A stretch of 60,159 nucleotides of DNA, counting the filler. It is 4 parts of 4 records of this genome, joined end to end, with 100 filler letters (N's around TTAATTAATTAA, not from the genome) between each part and the next. Parts side by side here need not be neighbours in the genome. Positions count along the whole stretch, not along the records: positions 36,286 to 60,159 come from DRR723986_5893; 3 more parts are not named here. One strand, written 5' to 3'. Under the pieces are notes generated by a model. It searched no databases and was not told where the DNA came from. It saw only the letters and a list, made by a program, of their open reading frames with translations. The position numbers were made by a program, and so were the translations under genes. This document shows positions 25,994 to 56,089 of this stretch, piece by piece. Positions within the stretch are counted from its first letter, which is position 1, and every line of letters begins with the position of its first letter.

Positions 25994-26093
25994 NNNNNNN
26001 NNNNNNNNNNNNNNNNNNNNNNNNNNNNNNNNNNNNNTTAATTAATTAANNNNNNNNNNNNNNNNNNNNNNNNNNNNNNNNNNNNNNNNNNNN
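25994..26093. other. Artificial contig linker
   Basis: N44-TTAATTAATTAA-N44. Confidence 0.97.
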
Positions 26094-36185: not shown

Positions 36186-36285
36186 NNNNNNNNNNNNNNN
36201 NNNNNNNNNNNNNNNNNNNNNNNNNNNNNTTAATTAATTAANNNNNNNNNNNNNNNNNNNNNNNNNNNNNNNNNNNNNNNNNNNN
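36186..36285. other. Artificial contig linker
   Basis: N44-TTAATTAATTAA-N44. Confidence 0.97.
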
Positions 36286-38642: not shown

Positions 38643-40061
38643 ATGATTCACCCCGTCATTATGGCCGGCGGCACCGGCTCACGCCTATGGCCTCTGTCCA
38701 GACAGCTGAATCCCAAACAGTTCCTGAAACTAACAGATGATCGCCTGTCCATGCTCCAATTGACTATCGCGCGATTGGAGGGAATAGAATCGGCAGACCC
38801 ACTTATCATTTGTAATGAAGATCACCGTTTCCTGGCAGCAGAGCAGATGCGCCAGTCCGGATACAATGACGCACACATCATTCTGGAGCCGTGCGGTCGC
38901 AACACCGCACCGGCTATCGCGCTTGCGGCGCTGCAATTGGTGAAGAGTGTGGATGAGAACCAGAATCCGCTCATGCTGGTGCTGGCCGCAGACCACATGA
39001 TCAAGGATACGAGCGCCTTCCAGAGCGGTATTAGCAAGGCAATTCCACAAGCTGAACAAGGAAAACTGGTCACTTTCGGGATTGTGCCAAGCCACGCCGA
39101 AACCGGCTATGGATATATCCACCAGGGTTCTCCCCTGGCAGAAGATTGCTTCCAGGTTAGTCGATTTGTCGAGAAACCAGACAAGAAGACCGCCGAAAAA
39201 TACTTGGCCACCGGAGAATACTTGTGGAACAGCGGCATGTTCCTGTTTGGTGCCCGCACCTATCTTGAGGAACTGCAGAAACACCGCCCTGACATTCTAG
39301 CCATCTGCCAAGCCGCCTTGGACGACGCCAGTGAAGACTTGCATTTCACCCGGGTCAACGAAAGCGTCTTTGCCGAGTGCCCTGAAGACTCCGTTGACTA
39401 CGCAGTTATGGAGAAAACAGACAACGCAGTCGTAGTGTCTCTGGACGCTGGCTGGAGCGATATCGGCTCCTGGTCTGCTCTATGGGAGGTGAGTGACAAA
39501 GATGCCAACGGCAACTGCTTCTCGGGTGATGTCATAGTCCACAATACCGAAAGCACCCTGGTTCGAGCCGACAGCCGGCTGGTAGCCACCGTAGGCGTGA
39601 AGGATCTGGTGATCATCGAAACAAAAGATGCCCTGCTGGTCGCCCACAAAGATCAGGTTCAGGACGTCAAGAAAGTGGTGGAAGCGATCAAGAACGATGG
39701 TCGCCACGAGCACATGAACCATCGGGAGGTCTATCGTCCATGGGGGGTTTACGACTCCATCGATAATGGCACCCGTTATCAAGTCAAGCGAATCACGGTA
39801 AAGCCTGGCGCCAAGCTATCGGTTCAGATGCATCACCACAGGGCCGAACACTGGATTGTGGTCAGCGGTACCGCCAAAGTCACCAATGGAGAGAAAACCT
39901 ATCTGGTCACCGAGAACCAGTCCACTTACATCCCGGTTGGCCAGATCCATTCTCTGGAGAACCCGGGCGTCATAGATCTTGAGCTGATTGAGGTTCAATC
40001 CGGTTCCTATCTCGGTGAAGACGACATTGTTCGTTACGAGGACCGCTACGGTCGGTCATGA
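38643..40061 (+). CDS. manC: Mannose-1-phosphate guanylyltransferase / mannose-6-phosphate isomerase
   Basis: [36 protein letters not shown] and cupin [10 protein letters not shown] motifs. Confidence 0.96.
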
Positions 40062-40966
40062 GCAAGCTTAAGTATTTTCTGATTGCCGGCTTATTGCGCA
40101 TCGCCGGCCTGCTACCTCTGAAACTTGCCCAAGCCATTGGCAAGTTCGGCGGTTTGCTGGCTTGGCACCTGAACGGCCGCTCGAGGAAAACCACCGATGT
40201 AAACATCAGGATTTGCCTGCCGGAACTATCAGCGGAGGAACAGCGAAGACTGTCGAAGGAATCCATGGCCCATACCGGCATGACGGCGATGGAGATTCCT
40301 TTAATGTGGGAATGGCCGGTCGACAAGTGCTTCAAACTTATCAAGGAAACCCGAGGGTTGGAGTTGGTTGATCAGGCGCTGGCCTCCGGCAAGGGGCTGA
40401 TCTTGCTCGCCCCCCACCTCGGCAACTGGGAACTGACGGGACTGTTTTTTTCGTCGCGCTATAAAATGGCAGCCCTCTATAGCCCGCCCCATATCAAGGA
40501 ATTCGAGGACTACATGATCCGCGTACGTGGTCGTCTGGGTTCCGAACTGGTGCGCGGCGACCGTAAGGGACTTCTCCGACTGATGGGCATTCTGAAGCAA
40601 GGCGGGGTGGCCGGCATACTTCCGGATCAGTCGCCACGAGGCAAAACCAACGCCTATGCTCCCTTCTTCGGGATGGAAGTGCGCACCATGACGCTAGTGA
40701 ATCGCCTGATTCAGAAAACCGGAGCCAACGTTCTGGTCACCTTTGCCGAACGCCTGCCGGATGGCAAGGGGTTCCACCTGATCGTTGAGGAGGCGGTTCC
40801 GGGCAATGGCGATTCAGATCCCGTAGTGGCCGCAACTGCGCTGAATCAATCGGTCGAGAAAGTCATTCGAATGGCACCCGCTCAGTATCAATGGGAGTAC
40901 AAGCGCCTGCGACATCGCCCGCCCGGCAACCTCAACCCCTATTACCCTCATAAAATCTGTCGTTAG
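40058..40966 (+). CDS. Lipid A lauroyl/myristoyl acyltransferase (LpxL/HtrB family)
   Basis: HLGNWE (H-x4-E), ILPDQ, APFFG and PAQYQW.YKR motifs. Confidence 0.88.
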
Positions 40967-41074: not shown

Positions 41075-42049
41075 ATGGCAAAGCAGAACGCCCGCCCCAA
41101 TCGGTTGCACAAAGCCGGCTTCTATGCCGCCAACGCGTTGTCCGGCGTTCTGCCCTGGGCGTGGTGGTCACAGCAACGTGACCGCCTTATGTCTGAGCTG
41201 GAAAGCCTGACGCCAAGCATCCGAGCGGACATCATGGCCCGGGGTCGTTACTACAACCGTTTACACCAAACCTTCGCACCGGCGCCCGATGCCGAGCCCA
41301 TCCGCTCGTTTTCACCGCGCAATAAAAGCAGTGCCTATTACTTTGATCTTCGTAACGTGATCCGTTACTTTCCACGGGACGCCAGGGTTGCCTATCAGTT
41401 AGGCGATGTTACCCGCATACCCGAGCATCCCCGTTTCGTTAAAAGCCGGCCAATTACCGCTGGAGACACCAACGCGCAATCCGTGCTCCTGAAACTCAAT
41501 ACTGTTCGCCACTACGTCAAGGTAGACGATAAGCTCGCCTTCGAAGATAAACACCCCACGGCTGTCTGGCGGGGAAAATCCAATCACCCGGAACGCATCG
41601 CTTTCGCCCGAAAATGGGCCGACAGCCAACTTTGCGATATCGGGTGTGTGCGCCACAAAGAGCCAACAGTGCAGGCCTATCACAAGCCTTTCATGACCAT
41701 CCCGGAGCAACTCGAGCATCAGTTCATCGTTAGTGTGGAAGGTATCGACGTTGCCACCAACCTGAAATGGATCATGGCATCGAACTCTCTGTGCCTGATG
41801 CGGCGGCCGAGATTTGAAACCTGGTTTATGGAAGGCACCCTGCAGCCAGACATCCATTACGTTCAGCTCAAGGATGATTTTTCGGATCTTGAGCAGAAGG
41901 TCACCTACTACCGTGAGCATCCATCGGAAGCAAAACGCATTATCGCAAACGCCCGTCAACATGCAGCGAGGTTCAGTAATCACCACCATGAGCGACTGAT
42001 TTCGCTTCTGGTTATCGATCGTTATCTGAGGTTGTCCGGGCAGATCTGA
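41075..42049 (+). CDS. Glycosyltransferase family 90 (LpsA-like LPS protein)
   Basis: FVKSRP, VWRG, SVEGIDVATNLKWIM and FETWFMEG motifs. Confidence 0.8.
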   Translation: MAKQNARPNRLHKAGFYAANALSGVLPWAWWSQQRDRLMSELESLTPSIRADIMARGRYYNRLHQTFAPAPDAEPIRSFSPRNKSSAYYFDLRNVIRYFPRDARVAYQLGDVTRIPEHPRFVKSRPITAGDTNAQSVLLKLNTVRHYVKVDDKLAFEDKHPTAVWRGKSNHPERIAFARKWADSQLCDIGCVRHKEPTVQAYHKPFMTIPEQLEHQFIVSVEGIDVATNLKWIMASNSLCLMRRPRFETWFMEGTLQPDIHYVQLKDDFSDLEQKVTYYREHPSEAKRIIANARQHAARFSNHHHERLISLLVIDRYLRLSGQI

Positions 42050-42130: not shown

Positions 42131-42961
42131 ATGTCTCCAAATTCCATCGGCGTGGTGATTACCACCTACAACTCCCCCCTCTGGCTGGGCAAAGTGCTCA
42201 CAGGCTATGAAAGCCAGAGCTTCAAGTCATTCCGTGTCATTATTGCGGACGATGGATCGACCGATGAGACAAAAGAACTGATCGATACCTTCAAAGCTCG
42301 CGGCATTCTCACTATCGACCACGTATGGCACGAAGACGACGGGTTCCGAAAGTGTCAGATTCTCAACAAAGCCATCCGTGAAACTGAGTGCGACTACCTG
42401 ATCTTTACCGACGGCGACTGCATTCCCGAACCGTATTTCATTCAGACCCATCACGATCTGGCCCGGCCCGGTTACTTTCTTTCCGGCGGCTACATCAAAC
42501 TGACCATGCCGGTATCGGAGGCCATCACCGACAATGACATTCGCTCCGGTGACATCTTCAAGCCCCAGTGGCTCGTTGCCCACGGCCAACCGAAAAACCA
42601 CAAACTCTGGAAGCTTTCCTCTTCACGCGGGTTCCGTCGTTTTATGAACCGGATTACCCCGGCAGCCGCAAGCTGGAATGGCATGAACAGCTCCACCTGG
42701 ACCAAAGATCTGATTGCGGTGAACGGTTTCAACGAAGACATGCAGTATGGTGGTCTGGACCGCGAGCTGGGTGAGCGTCTGTGGAACTATGGCCACAAAT
42801 CCATGCAGATTCGATACAGCACGGTGTGCCTGCATCTGGATCATGCCCGGGGCTATTCAAAACCAGAGATCTGGGCCAAAAACCGGGCCGTCCGGAAAGC
42901 CGTGAAGGATAACAAGACCTTCTGGGCCAAAAATGGCATCAAGAAGAAGCAACCCGCATGA
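42131..42961 (+). CDS. Glycosyltransferase family 2
   Basis: VITTYN, IADDGS, FTDGDC and NGFNEDM.YGGLD motifs. Confidence 0.92.
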   Translation: MSPNSIGVVITTYNSPLWLGKVLTGYESQSFKSFRVIIADDGSTDETKELIDTFKARGILTIDHVWHEDDGFRKCQILNKAIRETECDYLIFTDGDCIPEPYFIQTHHDLARPGYFLSGGYIKLTMPVSEAITDNDIRSGDIFKPQWLVAHGQPKNHKLWKLSSSRGFRRFMNRITPAAASWNGMNSSTWTKDLIAVNGFNEDMQYGGLDRELGERLWNYGHKSMQIRYSTVCLHLDHARGYSKPEIWAKNRAVRKAVKDNKTFWAKNGIKKKQPA

Positions 42962-44112
42962 GAACACTGGTTATTATCCACAGTCTGAAAATGGGCGGTA
43001 TGGAGCGCGTCGCGGTCAATCTGGCCGATGCCTTTGCTGAGGAAGGCCATGAAAGCCATCTGCTTTCTTGCCGGAATCACCCCAATGACCTGGCGCCTGC
43101 CAATCCGGGTGTGAAACTGCATTACTTTGATCAGTTTCAAGCCTTGATGAAGTCGATTATTGGTATTCCGGTATTTCTGTTATCCCGGCTGCTGCTGGGA
43201 GTCATCCTCCCACGCTCCCACTTCATGTGGGTTGGCTGGCTCAGTGGCTGGCTGCTCAAACGCCAGATCCGCGCCCTGGAAAAGCAGCACGGCCGGTTCG
43301 ACCGAATCATTTTCCGTGGACTGGGCACCTTCAAATATTTCTGGTCGTTTCGGGATGAGCGTTGTGTCTACGTTCTTGAAAACGTCATTCATTACGACCG
43401 GCCACTCTGGCAGAAAAAGCTGGAGTGGAAGCTGGTGTTCCACCGCCGCCACCTGGCCTGCGTGTCTTCCGGCGTCATGGACTCGGCCCTTGAGGCCTTC
43501 GAAAAGGGCAGCATTCAGCCTGCCAGCCTTCGGGTAATCACCAACCCTTGTCCGATCAGACAGATCGAGACACTGGCTGGCGAGGCCGATCCAGATACTC
43601 CCACCGCACCCTACATTCTGAATGTGGCGCGCCTCGTGCCCCAGAAGGGCCATGCGCTGCTGTTGGAAGCCTATGCCCGGTCAGGAATCAGCCACAAACT
43701 TGTGATTGTCGGGGAAGGGCCTCTGCGCAGCGAGCTTGAAGCCAAGGCCAGAGAACTTGGCATCCACGACCGAGTGATATTTGCAGGCAAGCGTAAGAAT
43801 CCCTATCCCTGGATGAAAAACGCCGACCTCTTTGTGCTCGCTTCTGAATACGAAGGCCTGGGAATTGTGCTGACCGAAGCCCTGGCCTGTGGCACACCGA
43901 TTATGGCGGTCGAAAGCCGCGGTGGCGTTCGCGACGTGTTCCGGGGAGATCTCGAAGCCTACCTGACGCTGAGAACGGCAGAGGGACTGGCCAGAGGACT
44001 ATCCGCAATTACGCAGGAGCTGCCGGTTACCGTAAAGCCTGAATGGCTGGCACCGTTTCGCAGTGAGGTGGTCGTGGCTGCCTTTCTTGACGCCCCCCAT
44101 TCCCGACGATGA
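42958..44112 (+). CDS. Glycosyltransferase family 4
   Basis: GGMERV, ARLVPQKG and YEGLGIVLTEALACG motifs. ATGA overlap. Confidence 0.92.
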   Translation: MRTLVIIHSLKMGGMERVAVNLADAFAEEGHESHLLSCRNHPNDLAPANPGVKLHYFDQFQALMKSIIGIPVFLLSRLLLGVILPRSHFMWVGWLSGWLLKRQIRALEKQHGRFDRIIFRGLGTFKYFWSFRDERCVYVLENVIHYDRPLWQKKLEWKLVFHRRHLACVSSGVMDSALEAFEKGSIQPASLRVITNPCPIRQIETLAGEADPDTPTAPYILNVARLVPQKGHALLLEAYARSGISHKLVIVGEGPLRSELEAKARELGIHDRVIFAGKRKNPYPWMKNADLFVLASEYEGLGIVLTEALACGTPIMAVESRGGVRDVFRGDLEAYLTLRTAEGLARGLSAITQELPVTVKPEWLAPFRSEVVVAAFLDAPHSRR

Positions 44113-44121
44113 AGAATACCC

Positions 44122-45054
44122 ATGGCTGAACACACCACCCCGCTCAATATTATGGTAGCCGGCATTTACTGGTCCGGTTCAGGAGCTGTAGTCGATTATC
44201 TCAAGGGCCACCCGGATTGCTTCGTTCCGCGTGGAGAATTCACGGACTTCAAGCGCAGCGGCCGTATTGGCTCGATGCTGGAGGCAGCAACTGCTCATCG
44301 TGCAAAATGGTTGGCCAGAGGCATGTGGCTGGAAACCCGTCTTGGAAAACTCCCAGCCGCCCAGTTGAAAGCAGCAAAAGGCAAAGCGCAGGCATCCATG
44401 CCTTTGAAAGAACAAGTCGGGCATCACCGGTTAAAACTTGAGTATCTTGGCAAATACCGACGTCACCTTGGCAACAACGGCAGCCACACCGATGCCGCGA
44501 TCTGGAACCAGTGGTTGCAAGCCGTGGGGCTTGCCCAAGCCGCTGGAAAGCCGGCGATTGTCTGGAATCAGCCGATCTGGGTAGGTAAACACGAGCATAT
44601 CTGGCCAGCCGTCTTCCAGCCTTACAAACTGATTGTTGTTCATCGCGACCCGGTGGACCAGTTCGCGGAAGTGGTTCGGCAAGGAAAAATCGGAAAACGA
44701 AAGTCCGATCCCGCGTTCAACGACGATGAAAAAGACGATATTGCCTACGTACTCACGGGTATCCGGGCCAAAATAAAAAGCCTGAGAGCCTTGGCAGACC
44801 AACTTGGCCGCGAGCAGATACTGCTGATCAGTTTTGAACGTTTCGTAAAAGACCACGGCTCGGAAGCACAAAGGCTCTGCGACTTTCTCAGCCTGCCAGA
44901 ATCACAAACGCCCTCAGCACCCTTTGACCCAAACATATCAATCCTGAACATCGGCATTGGTCAGACCGAGGCCATCCAGGCCATGCTCGCCCCATATCAG
45001 AACCTGGTGGACGAGCTTTATCGACTACGCCATCAACTGGACAGCTTGCAGTAA
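44122..45054 (+). CDS. P-loop sulfotransferase-fold protein
   Basis: N-terminal VAGIYWSGSGAV (5'-PSB-like loop), IVVHRDPVD (3'-PB-like) and ISFERFV..LCDFL motifs. Confidence 0.65.
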   Translation: MAEHTTPLNIMVAGIYWSGSGAVVDYLKGHPDCFVPRGEFTDFKRSGRIGSMLEAATAHRAKWLARGMWLETRLGKLPAAQLKAAKGKAQASMPLKEQVGHHRLKLEYLGKYRRHLGNNGSHTDAAIWNQWLQAVGLAQAAGKPAIVWNQPIWVGKHEHIWPAVFQPYKLIVVHRDPVDQFAEVVRQGKIGKRKSDPAFNDDEKDDIAYVLTGIRAKIKSLRALADQLGREQILLISFERFVKDHGSEAQRLCDFLSLPESQTPSAPFDPNISILNIGIGQTEAIQAMLAPYQNLVDELYRLRHQLDSLQ

Positions 45055-45815
45055 GAATCAAGGCGGCCATCCGCCGCCATTTCAGAATAGGCTTCCAGCT
45101 CCTCTGCTGTATCGACCTCCAGCCAGCCATTGGAAACAAGACAGGCTTTGACCGGCCAGCCTGTATCAATCAGGTGCTGAATAAAGCTGGTCATATACAT
45201 GTTGTCGAAGTCTTTACCGTCGTATAACCGGGACCGGTCCAGTGCCAGAAAAGCATCCTTGAAAGCCTGGACGTGGTCTGCGCGAACCTTGATCAGCCCC
45301 ATATACTGGGCCTCGACCTGATCGTAACTTTCCGGCTTTTTACCCAACTCGATGACAAGTCCCTTCTCGTTCATACGGAAAGTCTCAGCGTCATCAAGTG
45401 GCTCATCCATCCTCAACTGCCAGAGTCTGCGCCATTCACGATCAGCGGCAAGACACACAGGCGCCTCGCAATCCAGTAGCGATTGGAAAACGCCTGGCTC
45501 GTAGATAATGTCACCGTAACTGATGACCAGATCCTCACCGGGTACCATCTGGTCTTGAGCGCAGAACAACGTGCGAACCATGTTGGTTGAGGCATACTCC
45601 GGGTTAATCACGAGACCAGCCCCGAGCGTATCCAGATCGCCGGATCGGTAACCTCCAATGACCGTGATGCCATCCGTAATGCCACATTGCCTCATCGCAG
45701 CCATCTGACGGTGCAGCAGCGGAACACCAGCAAGAGCAACCATGCATTTAGGGCGGTCTTCCGTATAAGGCCGCAGCCGGGTTCCCTGGCCTGCAGCCAG
45801 TATCAGTGTTCGCAT
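45033..45815 (-). CDS. Cytidylyltransferase (LicC/Cj1416-like; putative CTP:phosphoglutamine cytidylyltransferase)
   Basis: ILAAGQGTRLRPYTEDRPKCMV, STNMVRTL, SYGDI, YMTSFIQ and WLEVDT motifs. Confidence 0.85.
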   Translation of the reverse strand: MRTLILAAGQGTRLRPYTEDRPKCMVALAGVPLLHRQMAAMRQCGITDGITVIGGYRSGDLDTLGAGLVINPEYASTNMVRTLFCAQDQMVPGEDLVISYGDIIYEPGVFQSLLDCEAPVCLAADREWRRLWQLRMDEPLDDAETFRMNEKGLVIELGKKPESYDQVEAQYMGLIKVRADHVQAFKDAFLALDRSRLYDGKDFDNMYMTSFIQHLIDTGWPVKACLVSNGWLEVDTAEELEAYSEMAADGRLDSYCKLSS

Positions 45816-46450
45816 GCTTCACCTCGGAGAATATGATTAAACAAACGGCTGTCAGCGTCGCTGAATGTCGACTCGCGCTCTGGGTGCCACATGATACCCG
45901 CCCAGGCCAGTCGATTATGCAAGAAGGCTTCGACATGGCCTTCCGCACTAAAACACTGCGGAATCAGCGCCCTTGCGAGTCCTTCTGCGGCAACCCCCCA
46001 GTTGTGGTAGCTGTTTACCTCCACAAACTGCCTGAAACAACCGATTGCCGCTGCCCCCACGACTATCGGGTGCCGCACAGCCGTATGATTGGCGACGGGG
46101 ACGAGCGTGCCACCGAGCCATGTATTGATCACCTGTAACCCCCGGCAAACGCCGATTACCGGAATCTCAGTTTCGTAAGCCCAAGCGAGCAAAGCTGCTT
46201 CGGCAGAGTCACGTTCCGGCGAGGGATTTTTAGCATTCGGAAGATTGCTTAGATCGTTTCCCCCAGTTAGTACTAGCGCCTCCAATGCCATTGAATCCGC
46301 CCATTTGGCAGTATCCAAAAGCCGGTTTGGAATCGGAATGGGGGTATATCCGAGGGCTTCCAAAAAACAGAACCACTGTTGGTCCAGGCAGTCTCGCCGC
46401 TCTCCGTATGCGGTGACGAGCTCAACCCGCTGGGTAATGCCCACACGCAT
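45803..46450 (-). CDS. Class I glutamine amidotransferase / peptidase C26 (Cj1417-like gamma-glutamyl-CDP-amidate hydrolase)
   Basis: ERRDCLD..W, LTGGND, GVCRG (catalytic Cys), VNSYH and WHPE (His-Glu). Confidence 0.85.
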   Translation of the reverse strand: MRVGITQRVELVTAYGERRDCLDQQWFCFLEALGYTPIPIPNRLLDTAKWADSMALEALVLTGGNDLSNLPNAKNPSPERDSAEAALLAWAYETEIPVIGVCRGLQVINTWLGGTLVPVANHTAVRHPIVVGAAAIGCFRQFVEVNSYHNWGVAAEGLARALIPQCFSAEGHVEAFLHNRLAWAGIMWHPERESTFSDADSRLFNHILRGEACEH

Positions 46451-46451
46451 A

Positions 46452-49400
46452 CTAACGGATCACCTCAATACGCTTATTCACAGGGTCCAACTCCAAGGTA
46501 GCCGCTTTCGCGAGCGCAGCATATTTGCCCTCACCCACGCCGATAGCCGCTGCCAGCCCATACTCTGCGGCACGAATGGCCATGTGTGAATTGGCGCCAC
46601 CGTACATAGTGATCAAGCCCACAATACCTTGACCAAACAACCAGTCGTAGCCGGGGTCTGCTTGAGGGATGAGAGCGATCTTACCCTCAAGTACTTGCGC
46701 ATCGCCCTCTGGCGAAGTCGACAGTTCCTGACAATCGGCTGCCACTCGCTGTTTACCGACGAAATTGGCTTGCGCCTCTGAATACACAAACAAATAGAAA
46801 TCCGATTCAGACAGCAACAGTGGCGGCAGCTCGACCATAGCAGCCGCGCGGCCGAAACAAGCCCCCTCGCTCGCCTGTGCCGCAAGCCAGGAGGCCGCCT
46901 GACCTGACGGCACCGATCCACTTCGGAGTATAGCGAACGCCTCGAGAGGAATGTCCGCCACCTGCGTACGATCCAGCTTATAGTCCGCCCCCATACAAGC
47001 CAGCGCTTCCAAGGCCAGAGATAGATAGCGAGTAAATACAAACTTCGCCTTCTCTCGGCCCTCAATAGCGCCTCGCATAAACTGCTCAAGCAGCTCTATG
47101 TCCGAAGGCAGGCCGGCCTTTGCCATCGCTCCAGCAAAGGCATCCCTTTCCGCATTCCAACTGATCATGTCCGGCTCTGCGCACGAATCCGACGCATGGG
47201 CTTCTGCACGTAATACCGCTGGCGCAAGATATTGCTCCGGATTTGTGTCATAACGCGCCGAGGTGATGTCATAAGTACCGGGTCGAAGATGGCCGTATAG
47301 GGCAATTAAGTCTGCAAATGCCATGTCCTGACGCGCTACTCGAATCAAATCGTCCGTAAAGCGATGAGATACAGTGCGGATGGAGTTCATGAATTCATCC
47401 ACGGCCGTTGGTGACAAAACACCTGTATGAACGGCCGATTTCAGCAACGTGACGGCAACAAAGCCACTCCGCGCCAAGTGAGCAAAAACCAGAGTGCCAT
47501 AGCGTTTGCACTCCTCAAGAAGCATAAAAGCTTTTTCCAGGCCGGCGACAGGTTCCTGTTCGAAGCTGGCAAAACGCGCTTCGACATTCCGTACTGCCCG
47601 CAGATCTCTTTCCGTTCTTGCAATAGCGCCAGTAGTGATGCTTCGCAACCCGGACTCAAGTTGCTCCACCTCGTTGTGGTCGAAGCCTCCTTCTGTAATT
47701 AACCGATCGCGCCAACGCTCGAAATCAAGTGCCAGGCACGTAGGCACAACCTCAAATTCGACCTTATCATGTAAGTGGGGGTGCTGTTTAAGCCACTTCA
47801 GATAGAAGTTAACCAGCCGCCGGGCCAAGTCATCACTCACACTGGCCGGAACAAACGAATTGAAGCTGGCACGGATATCGATGTACGGGTGCCCCGCAAA
47901 CATTTGCAACAGAGGCTGTGGACGGACATCCCGATAACCGTACTCCGCGCGCTGAGTTGCCCATACATCATCGAGAATAAGGTAGCGATAAAGACTCGCG
48001 GCAAGCCGTCCCGGCCGGGTTCCGATAATTTCAGCCGGATTCCAGTCGGGCATAACACCAAACAAAGCTTGATCTCCGACTACAAACGGGCCCGTCAGTT
48101 GCAACTCCCGGAAACGCTCAACCGCGTCTTGCAGCAGATACTCCCCCTGTGCATTTTGATCCGACTCATGCTGAACTGCAATCGGGCGTACTTGAAGCAC
48201 ATGCACAACTCCGCCAACGGTCAGGGCGAATTCAATATCAAGCGAATCGAAATCGAGTAGATCTTCTATTTCTCGGAGCGCAGGCAGCAAGCCCCTTAGG
48301 TTAACCGGCACAGAGACTAGCTGATCCGGCGCATCCCGCCGCACAATCAGTGTTTTATGCTCGCGACTTGCCCCGCTGGTGATTGACTCTGTGCTACGAG
48401 TGGTGTCGTCGTAATTTATGACGTAATAAGGCGCACCGGAAGATAGGGTTTTCGTGAAGGCAACACCACTGGCAACAACATCCTCCAGCATCGGCTGAAC
48501 CAGCACCTGGTTATCCGGATCGCCATCCGGATATGAGCCGATTACGGCTTCAATAGCGGAGCGCAAATCCCCACAGTTGTGGCGATCAACGCGGAGAATA
48601 CTGGTATAGGCGCCGGCGTTTGACACACCAAAGCCATCCTCTGACAACGCACTGCTACGGACCACAACTTTATCCTGCCCCGCCAGAGCGCCACCAATTT
48701 GTGCCAGAATACCGTCTTGATCCAGCTGCCAGTCTGACACCGTGAAACTAACCTGATCTTCTATTCGACTACGAGCAACGATACCTTGCAGCCTATGAAG
48801 GGTTTGGGCTTTGGTTCCAAGCACAAAACGACTCAGATCATTGGCTTCATTCAACTCAGCCCATTCGCCAGCGACATCAACGGCTTCGACCTGAAATCCG
48901 CGAACTCTGAGATACTCCAGCAACTGTGTCAGGTTGCCATTTCGGATTGAATCGGGAATGCCTGGGGTATCCCTCAGAAATCCGGCCACTCTGCCCGTCA
49001 GGCGAACCAGACCAACAAACTCTCCATCGGCCAACTCGGGGTCTATATCTCTACCGAGCCGGGTGACAACTCCATCAACTACATTCACCTTTTCGCAGCG
49101 GGCAATATCCTTATCCGACCTTCCCTCAAACCTGGATCTCCAGCAGGAGTCCACAAGCACCGCAATGTCTGCCGAGCTCGTGGCAAGAGCTTCAGCCGCC
49201 GATTCACGGAACAAAATATCGGCGTACGACACGAAGTGTGTCTCGGAGGCGTTTAACGGAGCCTCAAGCAGAGAGGCAGCAGCTCCGGTCGTTTCCCAAC
49301 GGGGATTCACTGTGTAATGGAGCTTCGGATAGCGCCGGGACACAGCGTCAAGCTGATACCCCCCCACGAAGTGAACCTCGGGCTTGATGGATCGCATGGC

Positions 49401-49532
49401 ATGTAACAACCAGTCCAGCACTCTGCGCCGACCAGTCGCACCGCGCAAACCACTGTGCTGTTCACCTTTGAATGGTTTTCCGGCACCCAGAATTATTAGG
49501 CGGGGTTGATGATGATCCAAACTGAGACTCAC
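46452..49532 (-). CDS. PEP-utilising-fold L-glutamine kinase (Cj1418-like) with fused N-terminal nucleotidyltransferase domain; start uncertain (GTG 49532)
   Basis: GTKAQTL, VVRSSALSED, DIEFA, LQVRP, VMPDWNPAEIIG, YGHLRPGTYDI and phosphohistidine motif GGANSHMAIR. N-terminal IILGAG...SYADI...WAELN domain. Confidence 0.88.
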   Translation of the reverse strand: MSLSLDHHQPRLIILGAGKPFKGEQHSGLRGATGRRRVLDWLLHAMRSIKPEVHFVGGYQLDAVSRRYPKLHYTVNPRWETTGAAASLLEAPLNASETHFVSYADILFRESAAEALATSSADIAVLVDSCWRSRFEGRSDKDIARCEKVNVVDGVVTRLGRDIDPELADGEFVGLVRLTGRVAGFLRDTPGIPDSIRNGNLTQLLEYLRVRGFQVEAVDVAGEWAELNEANDLSRFVLGTKAQTLHRLQGIVARSRIEDQVSFTVSDWQLDQDGILAQIGGALAGQDKVVVRSSALSEDGFGVSNAGAYTSILRVDRHNCGDLRSAIEAVIGSYPDGDPDNQVLVQPMLEDVVASGVAFTKTLSSGAPYYVINYDDTTRSTESITSGASREHKTLIVRRDAPDQLVSVPVNLRGLLPALREIEDLLDFDSLDIEFALTVGGVVHVLQVRPIAVQHESDQNAQGEYLLQDAVERFRELQLTGPFVVGDQALFGVMPDWNPAEIIGTRPGRLAASLYRYLILDDVWATQRAEYGYRDVRPQPLLQMFAGHPYIDIRASFNSFVPASVSDDLARRLVNFYLKWLKQHPHLHDKVEFEVVPTCLALDFERWRDRLITEGGFDHNEVEQLESGLRSITTGAIARTERDLRAVRNVEARFASFEQEPVAGLEKAFMLLEECKRYGTLVFAHLARSGFVAVTLLKSAVHTGVLSPTAVDEFMNSIRTVSHRFTDDLIRVARQDMAFADLIALYGHLRPGTYDITSARYDTNPEQYLAPAVLRAEAHASDSCAEPDMISWNAERDAFAGAMAKAGLPSDIELLEQFMRGAIEGREKAKFVFTRYLSLALEALACMGADYKLDRTQVADIPLEAFAILRSGSVPSGQAASWLAAQASEGACFGRAAAMVELPPLLLSESDFYLFVYSEAQANFVGKQRVAADCQELSTSPEGDAQVLEGKIALIPQADPGYDWLFGQGIVGLITMYGGANSHMAIRAAEYGLAAAIGVGEGKYAALAKAATLELDPVNKRIEVIR

Positions 49533-49727
49533 TATTCCGAGGAGAAGAAGTTCTCTGCTGCTATCCTGCGCCAAGCAAATATCAACGTCATGGCAGTACA
49601 CAGACCATCAAACAGCGGATGGCATACAATTTTAAATGATATCATTGGTGATAAAGCAATAATCTGAATCAGAGCCACAGCTATTCGTTCATCGGCAACA
49701 GGCTGGGGTGGCAGAAAGGACAATACC

Positions 49728-51155
49728 ATGAGGCAACGCTCACACCATATCACCGCAAACCTCGAGCAAACCGTCATCGAGAATGGCTTTTGCGTCGGCT
49801 GTGGTGCCTGTGCAGCCATTCCAGAATCGCCATTCTCCATATCTCTGAACGGAAAGGGGCAATATCAAGCGTCAGCAGATAAAAAAATAGATAACTCCCG
49901 CCCTGTAATTCAAGATTGCGTCGGCAAAGTATGCCCTTTTTCAGATAGCGCTGCTAACGAAGACAGCATTGCCCATGACCTTTTTGTAAACACTTGCGAT
50001 AGGCATACCGAGGGACTTGGTTATTTCCAAGCGATCTATGGTGGGCACGTTATTCAAGACGGCTTCCGGGAACGGGGAAGTTCCGGCGGGTTCGGATCCT
50101 GGATTTTAAACGAATTGCTGGAAACAAAGGCTGTTGATCACATTATTCATGTACGCCCATCCGAGGCGCTTGGGGCAGGTCACCCACTGTTCACTTATCA
50201 AGTTTCCAGCTCTGCCCGGGAAGTAGCACTGGGAGGTAAATCCCGATATTACCCGATTGAGCTATCGCAGGTTCTGAAACACGTTCGCGAAACGCCTGGC
50301 CGCTACGCCATCATAGGACTTCCTTGTTTCATCAAGAGTGTTCGTCTTCTTCAACGCCAAGATCCGCTTATAAAAGAAAGGATCAAATTCTGTATCGGTC
50401 TGGTTTGCGGTCATCTCAAAAGTACTCAATATGCCGAGAGCCTTGCCTGGCAGGCGGGAATTGAGCCTCAGAGCCTGAACCGCATCGACTTTCGCGTCAA
50501 AGACAACACAGAAAGAGCAGATCGGTATTGCACATTGGCTGCAAGCAACAAGGAAGAGCGGATAATCCCTACCAAAGAGCTTAAAGGAACAGACTGGGGG
50601 GCGGGCGCGTTCAAATATAAGGCCTGTGATTTCTGCGATGATGTATTTGCCGAAACTGCCGACATGGTGCTGGGCGATGCGTGGCTACCGCAATTCGTTG
50701 GTGACCCCCTGGGCACCAATGTCCTCGTTGTCAGAGATCAGCGCCTGGACGCCATCCTGCGATCTGCAGCGGAAGCGCGCCGGATCCAAATTAATTCCCT
50801 GCCAGAGACAGAAGCATTGACGTCTCAGGATGCCGGGTTAAGACATAGACGTGAGGGTCTGGGGTACCGACTACATCTTGAAAAAATGACTGGGAACTGG
50901 GCCCCAAAAAAGCGCGTCCCTGCCTCACCTCGAGGAATTCCCCCAAGAGAAAGACGACGGCAGGAAATGCGAATCAAAATGCGGGAACTTTCCCATAGCT
51001 CGTTTCAAAAAGCTAAACACGCCAACGATATTTCGCTTTATATTGAGCCCTTCACCAAAGCTTACAGAGAATACAAAAAAATCAAACCAAGCCGGTTCAA
51101 CAAACTGGCATTAAAGACAAAGCGGTTCATTCAGAATTTAGCGGGACGCTCATGA
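49728..51155 (+). CDS. Coenzyme F420 hydrogenase beta subunit (FrhB/FdhB)-like Fe-S flavoprotein
   Basis: CVGCGAC...CP ferredoxin motif, GSSGG, SRYYP, GLPC, GLVCG and CDFCDD motifs. Confidence 0.88.
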   Translation: MRQRSHHITANLEQTVIENGFCVGCGACAAIPESPFSISLNGKGQYQASADKKIDNSRPVIQDCVGKVCPFSDSAANEDSIAHDLFVNTCDRHTEGLGYFQAIYGGHVIQDGFRERGSSGGFGSWILNELLETKAVDHIIHVRPSEALGAGHPLFTYQVSSSAREVALGGKSRYYPIELSQVLKHVRETPGRYAIIGLPCFIKSVRLLQRQDPLIKERIKFCIGLVCGHLKSTQYAESLAWQAGIEPQSLNRIDFRVKDNTERADRYCTLAASNKEERIIPTKELKGTDWGAGAFKYKACDFCDDVFAETADMVLGDAWLPQFVGDPLGTNVLVVRDQRLDAILRSAAEARRIQINSLPETEALTSQDAGLRHRREGLGYRLHLEKMTGNWAPKKRVPASPRGIPPRERRRQEMRIKMRELSHSSFQKAKHANDISLYIEPFTKAYREYKKIKPSRFNKLALKTKRFIQNLAGRS

Positions 51156-52303
51156 AAGTTGCGATTCTTACACAGCCTTTGGGCCACAACTACGGTGGAA
51201 TATTGCAGGCTTACGCAATGCAGACAGTTCTTCGTGAACTTGGTTTCGAGCCAGAGACGATCGATAGGCGAAAACCCACAGGCTGGCGGAAGGTAGCACG
51301 CGACTACGTCAAGTACTCGATAAAAAAACTGCGCAGACGGATAAAAACAATCCCTACAGAAGCCAGAAAAAGCTACATTTACAGCAATCTTGAAGAGTTT
51401 CGGTCTATTCACCTGAAGATGTCACCAGTACTGACTTCTTCAGGTGATCTCTTGCAATACTGCGAAAATCAAAGTTTCGATTGTTATCTGGTGGGCAGCG
51501 ACCAAGTGTGGCGACCAAGATATTCACCTTGCCTCTCAAATTTCTTTTTGGATTTTGCTGCAAACACCACTTTCAGCGACAAAACCAAAATAAGCTACGC
51601 AGCATCGTTTGGCGTTGATCAGTGGGAGTTTTCAGACACTCAAACGATGAATGCAAAGTCTCTGCTTCAAGGATTCAGCGGCGTATCTGTTCGGGAAAAA
51701 TCAGCCGTGTCACTTTGTCGAGAACATCTTGGCGTGAACGCCGACTGGGTATTGGATCCGACTCTTTTGCTAAGTCGGTCCCACTACCAGGCCCTTATCG
51801 GCAATGGCACCGAATCCCCAAAACAAGCGGGAATTCTTCGCTACGTTCTGGACGAAAGTGAGACCAACAACACAGTCATTTCAAAAGCTGAAGCATTGCT
51901 CGGCATCGAGAGTTTTTCCGTAAAGCCCCATAAAACGCTTCAGGACTCGACACTCAACGATATCCACGCCTGTCAATACCCTCGGGTTGAGTCATGGATC
52001 CAGGGATTTCAGGATTCCAAATACGTAATCACAGATTCGTTCCACGGAACCGTTTTTGCCATTCTATTCAACAAACCATTTCTTGCGCTTGGCAATCAGG
52101 GACGAGGCTTGTCACGGTTTCAATCACTTCTTGGCCTACTGGGACTAGAACAGCGACTGATTACCTCTAAGACAGACTTGAATAAGGAGTTACTTGAAAC
52201 GCCGATCGACTGGCAGATCGTAAACGAACGCTTGATTCCGGCAATCAAGGAATCTAGGGCATTTCTGGTTAAACACCTGAAGGCAAGACGCGCAGATGAA
52301 TAG
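51152..52303 (+). CDS. Polysaccharide pyruvyl transferase family protein
   Basis: NYGGILQAYA, VGSDQVW, SYAASFG, SVRE, DPTLLL and TDSFHG motifs. ATGA coupling. Confidence 0.92.
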   Translation: MKVAILTQPLGHNYGGILQAYAMQTVLRELGFEPETIDRRKPTGWRKVARDYVKYSIKKLRRRIKTIPTEARKSYIYSNLEEFRSIHLKMSPVLTSSGDLLQYCENQSFDCYLVGSDQVWRPRYSPCLSNFFLDFAANTTFSDKTKISYAASFGVDQWEFSDTQTMNAKSLLQGFSGVSVREKSAVSLCREHLGVNADWVLDPTLLLSRSHYQALIGNGTESPKQAGILRYVLDESETNNTVISKAEALLGIESFSVKPHKTLQDSTLNDIHACQYPRVESWIQGFQDSKYVITDSFHGTVFAILFNKPFLALGNQGRGLSRFQSLLGLLGLEQRLITSKTDLNKELLETPIDWQIVNERLIPAIKESRAFLVKHLKARRADE

Positions 52304-53222: not shown

Positions 53223-53897
53223 TTACTTTGGCCTATTTGTAGATTTCAAACCTTCAGGTTCAAATCGGAAATTTGACAGACAATCCAAAGCCGACTCATG
53301 GACAACACCAAGCTGGGCAGGGAAAAAATCAAGATCAGCTGCGATAGCGATTGCTAACCTGTGATTGCCTTTACCACCAAAATATGGCTGACAGCCTGGC
53401 CCAATGTGGATCAGTACTCCGCCCTCTTCTCGGAAATTCCCTCTTACCAACTCCTTTCGAGTCCTAAGCTGCCCCTCTTTGACAACTTGCTCATATAAGT
53501 CGTCAAGCTGTTCATAGCGCTTGAGAACATCCTGACGACTTGAGAGGCGATCAACCTTTCCATTTTTTTCGATCCACGACATCATTTGATCTATCAATCC
53601 GGTTTCCTCCCAGCTTACTCCCCCCCGCCAGTGCTCGAGGCAGCACCGAATCGTTACCCACTTGCATAGTGGCCGCGCAAGGTCTTGAGGCCAATCGGAA
53701 ACCACTCGCGCACTTTGCTTGGAGCTCCATTTTTTCAAGCCAGCTTCGACATCACGAGTACGCACCCACAGCAGCTCTGCATATTTAGGAGCGCCTGCCC
53801 CGAACTCTCCTCGGTTACGGGCATCTTTCCTACTTGCCCTGATTCGTGTGCTCCAATTACGACGCATCTGCGCCAGACGACTTTTCTCGGTAATCAT
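53223..53897 (-). CDS. Hypothetical protein with a ParB/Sulfiredoxin-like GxHR motif; start uncertain
   Basis: LYEQVVKEG...VLIHIG...GKGNHRLAIA...PAQL pattern. Co-oriented with the downstream GT2, 6 bp apart. Confidence 0.6.
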   Translation of the reverse strand: MITEKSRLAQMRRNWSTRIRASRKDARNRGEFGAGAPKYAELLWVRTRDVEAGLKKWSSKQSARVVSDWPQDLARPLCKWVTIRCCLEHWRGGVSWEETGLIDQMMSWIEKNGKVDRLSSRQDVLKRYEQLDDLYEQVVKEGQLRTRKELVRGNFREEGGVLIHIGPGCQPYFGGKGNHRLAIAIAADLDFFPAQLGVVHESALDCLSNFRFEPEGLKSTNRPK

Positions 53898-54065
53898 AAG
53901 ACGTTGAGTCCGGAATCTATGAAGCGATGTATTTTTTCTACTGGCAAAGCTATTTGCCCAAACCACCCGCGCGCCGCTGCATTCAGTTCTTGGCCACTAT
54001 CGGAGCAACAACGAAAAACGTATAATCGAAGCATCGCTTTAAAGTTATATTTCAGAGAGTTACAA

Positions 54066-55289
54066 ATGTCAGCCATGAACTCTCGGGATAAGATCATTCA
54101 TCTGATCGCGTTAAGTCCCGGTATCTATATAATGACGGCAATGTGGCTGATCCCTGAGGGGTACAAATACGTCCCAGTCGCAATCATTTTGGCCATACTG
54201 GCCTTTCTCGCACTAAAGGGCTGGAACCACTTACCTCGCGCCAGCACCAACCCCAGAAAACCTTATGTCATTCTGATACTCGTATCAGCTTTTTGGTTCG
54301 GCTTAACTTACAAGATCAACGACGGCAGCATATCTCAGCTCAGGGCCTTGGCTTCGGTGGCAGTCTACATGGCATTAGTCTACCGATACGAATTTCCACT
54401 TCCGATATTAAGAGCGAGCGTATTTGCCTCCTGTTTCACATTATCCCTTATCTGCTTGTATCAATTCTTTTTTCTTGACATCAACAGGGCAACGCTAAAC
54501 TACAACCCAATCCCATTTGCAACCGGGCTAGCATTCTTCATGGCTGTCAGTTGCGCACTGGCATTCAGGGAGGAAGGCTGCGTCAACTCATTGGATATAA
54601 CTGCGGCGCTGCTCTCCCTCGCAGCTATTGCCACAACGGGTACCCGAGGTGTTTTAGCTCCTGCAATATTGGTGGCTTTGATTACCATTTGCTGGGGCAT
54701 GAGCGTCACCAATCTCTCAGGCAAAGTCAAAGCGGTAGTCGCAGCTCTCCTTTTGACATCTCTGCTTGGAGGCTCACTGTACGTGTCGCAGGGTCGAATC
54801 GAACTGGCCGTCGCTGATTTCGAGAAGATACAGGAAGGCGAGTACAGTGGCTCAATCGGACTGCGAGTCCAGTTTTGGAGAGGGGCAGTTGAGCTCGCCT
54901 CATTAGATCCATTTACAGGTATAGGAAACCAGCATTTCGAGGAATTCCAGAGACTGGGAGAACTCGGACAGATAAACCAGCAGGCAATGGAATACGCTCC
55001 CTATCATTACCATAATCAGTATCTGGATGACCTTGTCAAACGAGGGATACCAGGATTCGCGATTCTTCTAGCTACTCTGGCACTGCCTGTGGTGTTGTCA
55101 CTGAAACGTACTCCCAGAAATTCTTGGCAAAGACGCTCCATCTCACTAATCGTAATGATGACAGCAACGGCAGGCCTTACCGATGTCCCGCTGAATCACC
55201 CCCCCGTCATTTTCACCTTTTTTGTTCTTACGTTCTGTCTACTCCCAGCCACGAGATATAACGAACGTCAGCATATTACACGCCGATAG
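54066..55289 (+). CDS. waaL: O-antigen ligase family protein
   Basis: About 12 TM helices, NPIPFA, TGTRG, SIGLRVQFW and HYHNQYLD (Wzy_C) motifs. Confidence 0.85.
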   Translation: MSAMNSRDKIIHLIALSPGIYIMTAMWLIPEGYKYVPVAIILAILAFLALKGWNHLPRASTNPRKPYVILILVSAFWFGLTYKINDGSISQLRALASVAVYMALVYRYEFPLPILRASVFASCFTLSLICLYQFFFLDINRATLNYNPIPFATGLAFFMAVSCALAFREEGCVNSLDITAALLSLAAIATTGTRGVLAPAILVALITICWGMSVTNLSGKVKAVVAALLLTSLLGGSLYVSQGRIELAVADFEKIQEGEYSGSIGLRVQFWRGAVELASLDPFTGIGNQHFEEFQRLGELGQINQQAMEYAPYHYHNQYLDDLVKRGIPGFAILLATLALPVVLSLKRTPRNSWQRRSISLIVMMTATAGLTDVPLNHPPVIFTFFVLTFCLLPATRYNERQHITRR

Positions 55290-56089
55290 CCCTTTGCCAG
55301 ACAGACCAAAGCTCCCAGCTTTCTAACGATACGCTGACCGCGTTTTTTGATGTAGCGACTCAATGGCTTACCAGAGCTCTGGTTAATGGCCAAACGGCTT
55401 TGCTCAATGTGGCTATCTCTCCTGTCAACTGGATGTGAAAAGAGCCTGGAGAAATACATCTCGATCCCTCCACTGACGAAGAACGCTCCCCAGGCATCAG
55501 CTAACTTCAAATGCTGCCTGTGAGAGTCGAGTATGGCTCGAGCGCTTTGCCGAGTAACACCGTAGCAACATGTCCGGTAGACATAATCATTCGAGTACCG
55601 CGGCAGTCGATATAGCTGATCTACACCACTCGGTTTACCAAAAATGTACTTTCTGGAGGGCATCCCTTCCTGTCCGCCAAAGATCACAACCGCGCCATTA
55701 CCAACCTGCGACATTTGCGACAGTGCAACCTCAAAATCGTCATCTGTCCCCAGAACATCATCTTCAATTATCAGACACCGCCTACGACCAGAATCCAGAA
55801 AGCGCTCGAGCACTTTTATATGGCTGAGCGAACATCCAACTTCAGCGGGAGAGAACAATCTGGAACCACTCGATACAGACGGAAAAACACGCGAGAAATA
55901 CTCTGCGGCCGCCAAGGCCCTCCCATCAACGGCCTGGACCCATTCCATAACCGGATAATGCCCCGGAAACCGTTGAGACAAAGCTTCGCGCCGATGCTCA
56001 TCTGCACTAAGAGAGACCAGGTAAATCGGGATATGGTATTGCACTGACTCTGGACTCCTTGACCTGGACCCAATTTGAAACATCGACAA
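55268..56089 (-). CDS. Glycosyltransferase family 25
   Basis: YLVSL..RR, AVDG, EVGCSLSH and IIEDD motifs. Confidence 0.9.
   Translation of the reverse strand: MSMFQIGSRSRSPESVQYHIPIYLVSLSADEHRREALSQRFPGHYPVMEWVQAVDGRALAAAEYFSRVFPSVSSGSRLFSPAEVGCSLSHIKVLERFLDSGRRRCLIIEDDVLGTDDDFEVALSQMSQVGNGAVVIFGGQEGMPSRKYIFGKPSGVDQLYRLPRYSNDYVYRTCCYGVTRQSARAILDSHRQHLKLADAWGAFFVSGGIEMYFSRLFSHPVDRRDSHIEQSRLAINQSSGKPLSRYIKKRGQRIVRKLGALVCLAKGYRRVIC

Follow-up and report, generated by a model that had tools for sequence, protein, structure and literature searches.

A predicted cytidine diphosphoramidate cassette with a fused kinase in a Marinobacter-like lipopolysaccharide locus

Here, we describe a three-gene cassette found in a stretch of DNA of 60,159 nucleotides (nt), filler included, which we refer to as the window and along which all positions are counted. 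The cassette encodes a predicted L-glutamine kinase, a predicted gamma-glutamyl-cytidine diphosphate (CDP)-amidate hydrolase and a predicted cytidine triphosphate (CTP):phosphoglutamine cytidylyltransferase, and is set among lipopolysaccharide (LPS) genes; the closest named protein matches are from Marinobacter. Our reading, to which we give a probability of about 0.6, is that this operon supplies the cytidine diphosphoramidate with which an unmethylated phosphoramidate is added to the LPS. The first three enzymatic steps are known, from Campylobacter jejuni. The novelty is in the variant, with its domain fused to the kinase, its lack of a 3'-kinase and of methylation and its different transferases, and not in the occurrence in a marine gammaproteobacterium.

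Surface glycans with phosphorus-nitrogen bonds are seen as a speciality of Campylobacter. The glutamine kinase is termed 'C. jejuni-specific' in a 2022 review (PMC9561416), and a preprint on Borgs describes a comparable set of four genes in archaeal elements (10.1101/2024.11.05.622173). Two further papers report unmethylated phosphoramide, one from the LPS core of Xanthomonas campestris (PMC8042644) and the other, as a minor variant, from that of Shewanella sp. MR-4 (PMC3210612). Our literature search found no paper assigning genes to the LPS phosphoramide, nothing on the chemistry of the Marinobacter LPS core, and no description of the fused-kinase variant, the primary papers on Cj1415-Cj1418, which possibly cover family spread, lying outside that search.

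The cassette and its enzymes

The whole cassette locus lies within the last of the four pieces that make up the window (36286-60159). The kinase gene is on the minus strand at 46452-49532 and, in our listing of open reading frames (ORFs), encodes 1026 amino acids (aa) from a GTG at 49532. The open frame extends to another GTG at 49601 (46452-49601, 1049 aa), and 49532 is the likelier start because 1026 aa is the length of the Marinobacter homologues. The hydrolase gene (45803-46450, minus strand, 215 aa) has its ATG 1 nt past the TAG of the kinase gene, and the ATG of the separate nucleotidyltransferase gene (45033-45815, minus strand, 260 aa) lies inside the 3' end of the hydrolase gene, with a 13-nt overlap. 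An earlier reading of the letters alone, the sequence-only reading, had described three tightly coupled minus-strand genes, and the ORF listing, with its 1-nt gap and 13-nt overlap, bears this out. The motifs that it quoted are also all present: VMPDWNPAEIIG at residue 493 and GGANSHMAIR at residue 978 of the kinase (1026-aa numbering), and, in the hydrolase, GVCRG at residue 100 and WHPE at residue 188. The region 44122..49532 also takes in a plus-strand Sulfotransfer_3 gene (44122-45054), which stands outside the minus-strand trio and is considered below as a candidate transferase.

Residues 231-1026 of the large protein (46452..48842, minus strand) form a kinase part of the PRK05849 family of phosphoenolpyruvate (PEP)-utilizing enzymes. 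This part scores 854.7 bits against the NF004508 (PRK05849) model, for which the cut-off is 501, and covers profile positions 4-788 of 789, compared with at most 42.7 bits over short stretches for the PEP synthase, rifamycin phosphotransferase and PigC/RedH models. Pfam recognizes PPDK_N (PF01326, ATP-grasp) and the PEP-utilizers mobile or swivel domain (PF00391). A motif search places the phosphohistidine motif GGANSHMAIR, with His983, at 46572-46601 on the minus strand, and all 24 relatives in the alignment share this histidine. Eight kinases drawn from all three of the locus classes defined below pass NF004508 as well (906-991 bits), a model that we take to contain Cj1418, and some homologues of 56-59% identity carry the JGI name 'glutamine kinase'. 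A phmmer search of the whole kinase against the PDB sequences gave no match. Taken together, the family-level comparison supports the prediction of an L-glutamine kinase. The architecture is distinct, in that the window kinase is neither a stand-alone protein of ~770-800 aa nor a member of the clade linked to adenosine 5'-phosphosulfate (APS) kinases and methyltransferases.

What sets the protein apart is its N-terminus. The first ~230 aa (48843..49532, minus strand) form a nucleotidyltransferase-like domain, identified by BLASTP, by profile hidden Markov models (HMMs) and by profile comparison with the PDB; no Pfam or NCBIfam entry matched it. The domain aligns to the separate nucleotidyltransferase of the same cassette at 22% identity (BLASTP, E 2e-11) and scores 76 bits against an HMM built from the separate transferases, which identifies it, from these alignments, as a paralogue of that enzyme. 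A profile of 29 such N-domains matches the pyrophosphorylase domain of GlmU (7k47, E 8.6e-5). The Y.D and W.E.N motifs are conserved, and the glycine-rich loop departs from the canonical GxGxR...PK. The alignment of this loop is ambiguous: MAFFT places a 5-residue gap in it, and HMMER pairs GAG(K/R)P.(K/R)G..pS of the N-domain with AAGKGTRM..LPK of GlmU. One basic residue of the loop may be kept, and the lysine of the 'PK' element appears to be lost. The N-domain is present in 40 of the 75 full kinases that we collected and is the hallmark of this variant of the pathway.

The second gene encodes a Peptidase C26/GATase protein (45803..46450, minus strand; Peptidase_C26, 81.8 bits), predicted to be a gamma-glutamyl-CDP-amidate hydrolase. 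Its predicted catalytic triad consists of Cys102 in GVCRG with His189 and Glu191 in WHPE. The best family is NF045546, the gamma-glutamyl-CDP-amidate hydrolase model (E 1.7e-34, profile positions 3-188 of 198), and the next-best family model reaches 37 bits.

The third gene encodes a LicC-like nucleotidyltransferase (45033..45815, minus strand), predicted to be the CTP:phosphoglutamine cytidylyltransferase. It matches the Pfam families NTP_transf_3 (PF12804, 48.8 bits) and NTP_transferase (PF00483) and has the canonical signature LAAGQGTRLRP...RPK. Its closest solved relative is LicC (1jyk, E 1.3e-11), and by homology it groups with the transferases of 64 loci in one cluster that spans all classes. 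No NCBIfam model for CTP:phosphoglutamine cytidylyltransferase activity matched it.

Family spread and locus classes

The kinase family was collected from 8000 scored candidates, of which 6851 proteins had E <=0.001, and is represented by 1509 clusters (50% identity, E <=1e-30). Among species-representative genomes, it was confirmed in at least 846 places or species. We retrieved the surroundings of the best-scoring 80 of these (L001-L080), which come from Pseudomonadota, Bacteroidota, Actinomycetota, Acidobacteriota, Planctomycetota, Bacillota, Spirochaetota, Chlamydiota, Cyanobacteriota and other phyla; no Campylobacter, Xanthomonas or Shewanella locus is among the best 80. A full kinase is present in 75 of 81 sources (74 fetched loci and the window), the other six being cut by contig ends. 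Neighbouring proteins were grouped by BLASTP clustering, and HMMs were then built from the recurrent neighbours.

Across the 75 loci with a full kinase, a separate transferase is found in 63 and a hydrolase in 61, and the hydrolase gene usually adjoins the kinase gene (median distance 0 bp). Because the transferase and hydrolase accompany the kinase so often, the trio is a conserved cassette and not a chance neighbourhood. With a family confirmed in at least 846 species, the cassette is therefore no odd import into one marine bacterium, and the locus in the window is a typical representative of a pathway variant that is very common.

The N-terminus of the kinase divides the loci into three classes. 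Class i kinases (14 loci) have no extra domain; these loci contain a separate APS-kinase gene in 10 cases, a methyltransferase in 10, a protein of neighbour family c23 in six and a TagF-like protein in three. In class ii (21 loci), an APS-kinase domain is fused to the kinase, and the locus carries a methyltransferase in 14 cases, family c8 in 19 and a TagF-like protein in none. Class iii (40 loci, including the window) comprises the kinases fused to the nucleotidyltransferase-like domain: an APS kinase occurs in two loci, a methyltransferase in none, a TagF-like protein (Glyphos_transf) in 26 and a Formyl_trans_N-like protein in 14, while the hydrolase and the canonical transferase are each kept in 32 of the 40. 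Genes for CysQ-like proteins (Inositol_P) were found in five loci, all of class i or ii, and those for PF00884 (EptA/LtaS-type) proteins in 15, all of class iii. The pattern is similar in the strict subset of 48 loci that have at least 6 kb on both sides of the kinase: TagF-like 19, APS kinase 2 and methyltransferase 0 in the 27 loci of class iii; methyltransferase 12, c8 13 and TagF-like 0 in the 14 of class ii; and APS kinase 5, methyltransferase 5, c23 5 and TagF-like 1 in the seven of class i.

A FastTree phylogeny of the kinase part (72 rows, with three kinases of less than 760 aa left out and Cj1418 not among the rows) separates the 40 class iii rows from the other 32, those of classes i and ii, with a branch support of 100. 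The kinase of the window is nearest to those of two Marinobacter loci, with 64% identity.

The class ii fusions (L041, L046, L049-L052, L056, L058-L063, L068, L072-L074 and L078-L080) come from Acidobacteriota and some other phyla. Their fused domain scores ~200 bits on our APS-kinase HMM and, in L060, 173 bits on NF004041. The c8 family found beside these kinases has no Pfam match and occurs either as a free protein of ~290 aa or within proteins of 690-960 aa.

In C. jejuni, Cj1415 is an APS-kinase-like protein, and Cj1419 and Cj1420 are methyltransferases. According to PMC11800397, Cj1415-Cj1418 jointly convert glutamine, ATP and CTP to CDP-phosphoramidate 3'-phosphate, and the methyl phosphoramidate disappears when Cj1421 or Cj1422 is lost. 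The class i and ii loci, with their APS-kinase, methyltransferase and CysQ-like genes, have a gene content that matches the roles given for Cj1415-Cj1418 in that paper. L054 and L070, for example, have the order kinase, methyltransferase, methyltransferase, hydrolase, transferase, APS kinase. We take this order to resemble that of C. jejuni. The gene content of classes i and ii suggests a logic like that of 3'-phosphoadenosine 5'-phosphosulfate (PAPS), with a 3'-phosphorylated donor, a sulfotransferase-fold transferase and CysQ-like clearance of the 3',5'-bisphosphate. For class iii, the simplest reading is that cytidine diphosphoramidate is used directly and gives an unmethylated phosphoramidate.

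Proposed pathway

From family membership, the following series of reactions can be proposed for the window. The kinase part would use ATP to load His983 of the swivel domain; the 260-aa nucleotidyltransferase would then join cytidine monophosphate (CMP), from CTP, to phosphoglutamine, giving CDP-L-glutamine; and the C26 hydrolase, through Cys102, His189 and Glu191, would cut off glutamate to leave cytidine diphosphoramidate. This donor is probably used directly, without 3'-phosphorylation, because the class iii clade lacks an APS-kinase-like enzyme. In the last and weakest step, the phosphoramidate would be attached, without methylation, to a sugar residue in the LPS core or O-chain that the neighbouring genes produce. 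A TagF-like CDP-dependent phosphotransferase would carry out this transfer in most relatives, and its gene is absent from the visible Marinobacter DNA.

A broader and distinctly more tentative proposal is that class iii represents a second, widespread and APS-kinase-independent route: a clade of fused-domain kinases, without 3'-phosphorylation or methylation, in which cytidine diphosphoramidate is used directly and transferred either by a TagF-like enzyme or, in the case of Marinobacter and of one species of Legionella, by a sulfotransferase-fold protein in which the residues corresponding to the PAPS-binding ones of 3-OST-3A1 have been lost. Such a route might explain the phosphoramide of the Xanthomonas and Shewanella LPS, with the Campylobacter-type systems following the PAPS-like logic instead. 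We think it somewhat more probable that this general scheme is wrong in some part than that it holds as a whole.

Candidates for the transfer step

A TagB/TagF-like (Glyphos_transf) gene is present in 26 of the 40 class iii loci, often directly after the transferase gene, whereas the window has none. The commonest subfamily barely passes the Pfam cut-off (22.6 versus 22.1 bits). Enzymes of the TagF family use CDP-linked donors and release CMP, and by analogy a transfer of this kind would suit cytidine diphosphoramidate. Our literature search found no paper on phosphoramidate transfer by a TagF-like enzyme. On the Vibrio alfacsensis plasmid pYa108 (L081:5496-14033), the cassette with its TagF-like gene is divergent from the adjoining cysD/cysN (sulfate adenylyltransferase) genes and adjoins an XrtA/PEP-CTERM exopolysaccharide locus. 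RefSeq names in the plasmid class iii loci are generic: 'PEP-utilizing enzyme', 'gamma-glutamyl-gamma-aminobutyrate hydrolase family', 'phosphocholine cytidylyltransferase family' and 'CDP-glycerol glycerophosphotransferase family'.

Two further partners recur in class iii. The Formyl_trans_N-like protein (~290-620 aa; L003, L012, L014, L015, L018, L020, L021, L023, L027, L028, L030, L037, L038 and L053) is often accompanied by families c12 (~80 aa) and c18 (~150 aa) and a YidC-like membrane protein, and hints that some class iii systems elaborate the group further. The PF00884 membrane proteins, of the alkaline-phosphatase family that Pfam names 'Sulfatase' (L008, L013, L025, L031-L033, L038, L042 and L057 among the 15 loci), might have a role in a periplasmic transfer step. 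HMMs for the Formyl_trans_N-like and the CysQ-like proteins gave no match in any frame of the window.

The candidate offered by the window itself is the product of the Sulfotransfer_3 gene (44122..45054, plus strand), an atypical sulfotransferase-fold protein of 310 aa that matches the whole profile with 44.7 bits. Its gene is convergent with the cassette, with a 22-nt tail overlap, lies 10 nt downstream of a glycosyltransferase family 4 (GT4) gene, and is found at the same position in both Marinobacter loci (L001 and L002). The protein has 53 homologues, all of the named ones from Marinobacter, and shares 98% identity with MARHY0660 from M. nauticus ATCC 49840; the entry of a 98% homologue in the Protein Atlas adds no more than a confirmation as 'sulfotransferase'. 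Outside Marinobacter, a 968-aa protein is encoded directly upstream of the fused kinase in Legionella septentrionalis (L006:6314-9220), a class iii locus without a TagF-like gene. The N-terminal part of this protein matches the sulfotransferase-like profile (E 1.6e-11 among 1315 ORFs) and keeps both motifs, and the remainder is heparinase II/III-like.

Aligned to the PAPS-dependent heparan sulfate 3-O-sulfotransferase 3A1 (3-OST-3A1; 1t8t, E 4.5e-4, across both nucleotide-binding motifs), the window protein has GIYWSGSGAV in place of GVKKGGTRAL, with loss of the loop lysine, and HRDPVDQFAE in place of VRDPVTRAIS, with the serine replaced by glutamate. The position of this serine is Glu or Asp in 16 of 16 members of the family and Asp in the Legionella protein. 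The replaced residues are, we presume, those that bind the 5'-phosphosulfate and the 3'-phosphate of PAPS, and losing them would be compatible with a donor that has no 3'-phosphate. Against the candidate is the retention of the motif's arginine. We regard this protein as the best, though a weak, candidate for the phosphoramidate transferase, and the assignment is doubtful.

Identity to M. nauticus is mosaic across this region, at 98% for the sulfotransferase-like protein and 73% for the adjoining kinase, which is 79% identical to the kinase of Marinobacter sp. VGCF2001; a 97% kinase match occurs among unnamed proteins only. Such a comparison suggests allelic replacement within the LPS locus.

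In classes i and ii, two neighbour families that are the likely transferases look like sulfotransferases. The c23 profile matches tyrosylprotein sulfotransferases and the sulfotransferase of CurM (4gbm, E 6.6e-10), and one c23 member has a sub-threshold Sulfotransfer_3 match, while c8 gives weak sulfotransferase matches in the PDB (TEG12/StaL, E 0.11 or worse). A Ser or Thr eight residues past the arginine of the R.P motif is present in six of six c23 and nine of nine c8 sequences. A homologue search with c23 returned 27 matches, all unnamed or 'hypothetical' and none from Campylobacter. Large c23-type proteins (599-871 aa) occur in Lachnospiraceae (L065:7637-9436, L069:7364-9979, L070:15975-18338 and L077:15657-18014). 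Judged from their sequences, these large proteins beside Campylobacter-like cassettes are candidate phosphoramidate transferases, with a donor resembling PAPS.

Surrounding genes and the acceptor

The sequence-only reading had placed the cassette among LPS genes, naming a lipid A acyltransferase, kdkA, a GT9 gene and waaL, and our annotation agrees. Upstream in window coordinates, all on the plus strand, are genes for ManC (38643-40061; TIGR01479, 760 bits) and, from Pfam matches, an LpxL-family acyltransferase (40058-40966; Lip_A_acyltrans), a GT90 (41075-42049), a GT2 (42131-42961) and the GT4 (42958-44112). On the other side, again by Pfam, are an O-antigen-ligase-domain (Wzy_C) protein (53685-55289, plus strand), a GT25 (55268-56089, minus strand), a Kdo-kinase-like protein (56096-56782, minus strand) and a GT9 heptosyltransferase-like protein (57672-58727, plus strand), together with KdkA (56796-57545, minus strand; NF002475, 244.4 bits, cut-off 142).

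The same sequence-only reading had concluded that the phosphoramidate decorates the LPS core or O-antigen. The LPS gene setting on which this was built is there, but gene neighbourhood is its sole basis, and the attachment to LPS was overstated. With the same donor, the group could instead be placed on a capsule, an exopolysaccharide or a glycoprotein, the LPS setting being incidental. Cassettes of other lineages do lie in general polysaccharide loci, with genes for UDP-glucose dehydrogenase, epimerases, DegT and AsnB, and the Vibrio plasmid cassette belongs to an exopolysaccharide locus; the LpxL, KdkA and ligase context is common to the Marinobacter loci only; and in the window a pyruvyl transferase pair lies divergently upstream of the cassette. 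Two things argue for LPS: core and lipid A genes flank the cassette on both sides in the window and in L001 and L002, and phosphoramide is chemically known on LPS cores (PMC8042644 and PMC3210612). On this evidence, we consider a non-LPS acceptor improbable.

The pyruvyl transferase pair consists of overlapping plus-strand genes, identified by Pfam, for an FrhB/FdhB-like protein (49728-51155) and a polysaccharide pyruvyl transferase (51152-52303); it is divergent from the kinase gene and forms context outside the cassette. No homologues of the pair were found beside the cassette in the 80 loci. It may point to a pyruvylated sugar in the same glycan.

A 247-aa ORF without a family match (53223-53966, minus strand) runs across the initial 280 nt of the O-antigen-ligase-domain gene, as given by its longest ORF, and one of the two starts is probably wrong. 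A scan for promoters and terminators gave nothing above chance (4 versus 4.4 expected and 5 versus 6.0), and a scan for tRNA genes found none.

The four pieces of the analysed DNA have a G+C content of ~64, 50, 63 and 52% and are joined artificially at 11087-11186, 25994-26093 and 36186-36285, each spacer consisting of 44 N, TTAATTAATTAA and 44 N. Linkage, and even a common organism, is not to be assumed for genes on different pieces. A Sulfotransfer_2 gene fragment (35810-36178), cut by the end of the third piece, is unrelated to the Sulfotransfer_3 gene.

Weighing the assignment

Several observations weigh against our reading of a cytidine diphosphoramidate pathway acting on LPS, and we bring them together here. 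HMMs for the TagF-like, APS-kinase (built from 14 APS-kinase-like neighbours), PF00884, c8, c20 and c23 families, scanned against all six frames, gave no match in any frame of the window. The best candidate, the sulfotransferase-like gene, follows glycosyltransferase genes on the strand opposite to the cassette; hhalign comparisons of its family with c23 and c8 were not significant (probabilities 3.9, 0.5 and 0.4); and its product may be a plain glycan sulfotransferase. The likeness to Cj1416-Cj1418 is through NCBIfam models and gene content only, and the kinase of the window belongs to the sister clade of the APS-kinase-associated kinases. Because of this position, the substrate of the kinase could differ from glutamine. 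Each of the classes arises once on the tree, which makes the gene associations properties of clades, and those of class iii count as one event and not as 40. The sample of the best 80 loci is biased towards kinases like that of the window, and the 1315 proteins of the loci, including those of the window piece, were called by a crude longest-ORF rule. Finally, the hydrolase scores 119.7 bits against NF045546, below the curated cut-off of 250. As a control, eight hydrolases from cassettes of the three locus classes were scored, five of them from loci with APS-kinase and methyltransferase genes, and all eight also fall under the cut-off, at 85.7-172.1 bits. Since the controls fail too, the cut-off is narrow and the score of the window hydrolase is typical of the cassette.

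The sequence-only reading had assigned the three genes to glutamine kinase, hydrolase and cytidylyltransferase, and at the family level this is supported by NF004508, by NF045546 as the best match and by the conservation of the cassette. Its label 'Campylobacter-type' is imprecise, given the extra N-domain and the place of the kinase in a sister clade. Its suggestion that the group is probably non-methylated fits the data: there is no methyltransferase gene on the piece 36286-60159, the single methyltransferase HMM match in the window (36 bits) being a generic enzyme on another piece, and there is none in the 40 class iii loci. As for the further claim that CDP-NH2 is made and then transferred, the enzyme families for its synthesis are in place, but neither a Cj1415-type kinase nor a recognizable transferase is.

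A second alternative grants the cassette and questions its chemistry. The fused-domain clade may have diverged so as to act on another amide or amine, or to have its group N-acylated or carried on a lipid, and the N-domain may itself be catalytic. The clade branches deeply and with good support, its N-domain has kept the Y.D and W.E.N motifs, and there are partners peculiar to the clade, the Formyl_trans_N-like protein in 14 of 40 loci and the PF00884 proteins in 15. On the other side, 32 of 40 loci retain the hydrolase and 32 the canonical transferase, a conservation difficult to account for if CDP-glutamine were not both formed and cleaved; none of the clade's extra partners is in the window; and NF004508 scores are alike in all classes. 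We therefore hold divergent chemistry to be unlikely, on a par with a non-LPS acceptor, and retain the cytidine diphosphoramidate pathway as the preferred reading.

The remaining alternatives concern the identity of the enzymes. A lic1-type phosphocholine pathway, with the large protein as its 'choline kinase', could be read from the database: LicC is the best solved relative of the nucleotidyltransferase, JGI uses 'choline kinase' for several kinase homologues, and RefSeq uses 'phosphocholine cytidylyltransferase family' for the transferase. The 'choline kinase' label, however, sits on proteins whose kinase part is the PEP-utilizing enzyme, the conserved C26 hydrolase has no part in the lic1 pathway, and Pfam scans of the ORFs of the locus found no LicA-type (APH-fold) choline kinase, no LicB and no LicD. 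As the LicC-like fold is the only one of these present, we reject a phosphocholine pathway as very improbable. Weaker still is the view of the large protein as an enzyme like PEP synthase or rifampicin phosphotransferase, unrelated to glycan decoration, which has in its favour the shared PPDK_N and PEP-utilizers domains and the RefSeq name 'PEP-utilizing enzyme': the sequence-only reading had named such a grouping as fatal to its case, and we reject it on the model scores, which at the family level place the kinase elsewhere (854.7 versus at most 42.7 bits), and on the constant linkage of the kinase gene to the hydrolase and transferase genes.

Significance and comparison with known systems

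The gene-content classes imply that there are two ways of handing over a phosphoramidate. If the variant in the window acts as we propose, the phosphoramide seen without explanation on some LPS cores would become accessible to genetics, a new donor would be predicted for TagF-like enzymes, and better names could be given to thousands of genes now called 'PEP-utilizing enzyme', 'GABA hydrolase family' and 'phosphocholine cytidylyltransferase family'. Taken by itself, the window yields less, a plausible, unproven decoration of the LPS in a non-pathogenic marine bacterium.

The nearest chemical parallels are the LPS cores of Xanthomonas campestris pv. campestris and Shewanella sp. MR-4, which bear a P-N group of the kind predicted here, the likeness being chemical only. 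The nearest genetic parallel is the O-methyl phosphoramidate system of C. jejuni (Cj1415-Cj1422). The window shares with it the same three enzyme families in one cassette and differs from it in having no equivalent of Cj1415, no methyltransferases and no transferase candidate of the large type. The setting differs as well: in C. jejuni the context is that of the capsule, whereas in the window it is that of the LPS core.

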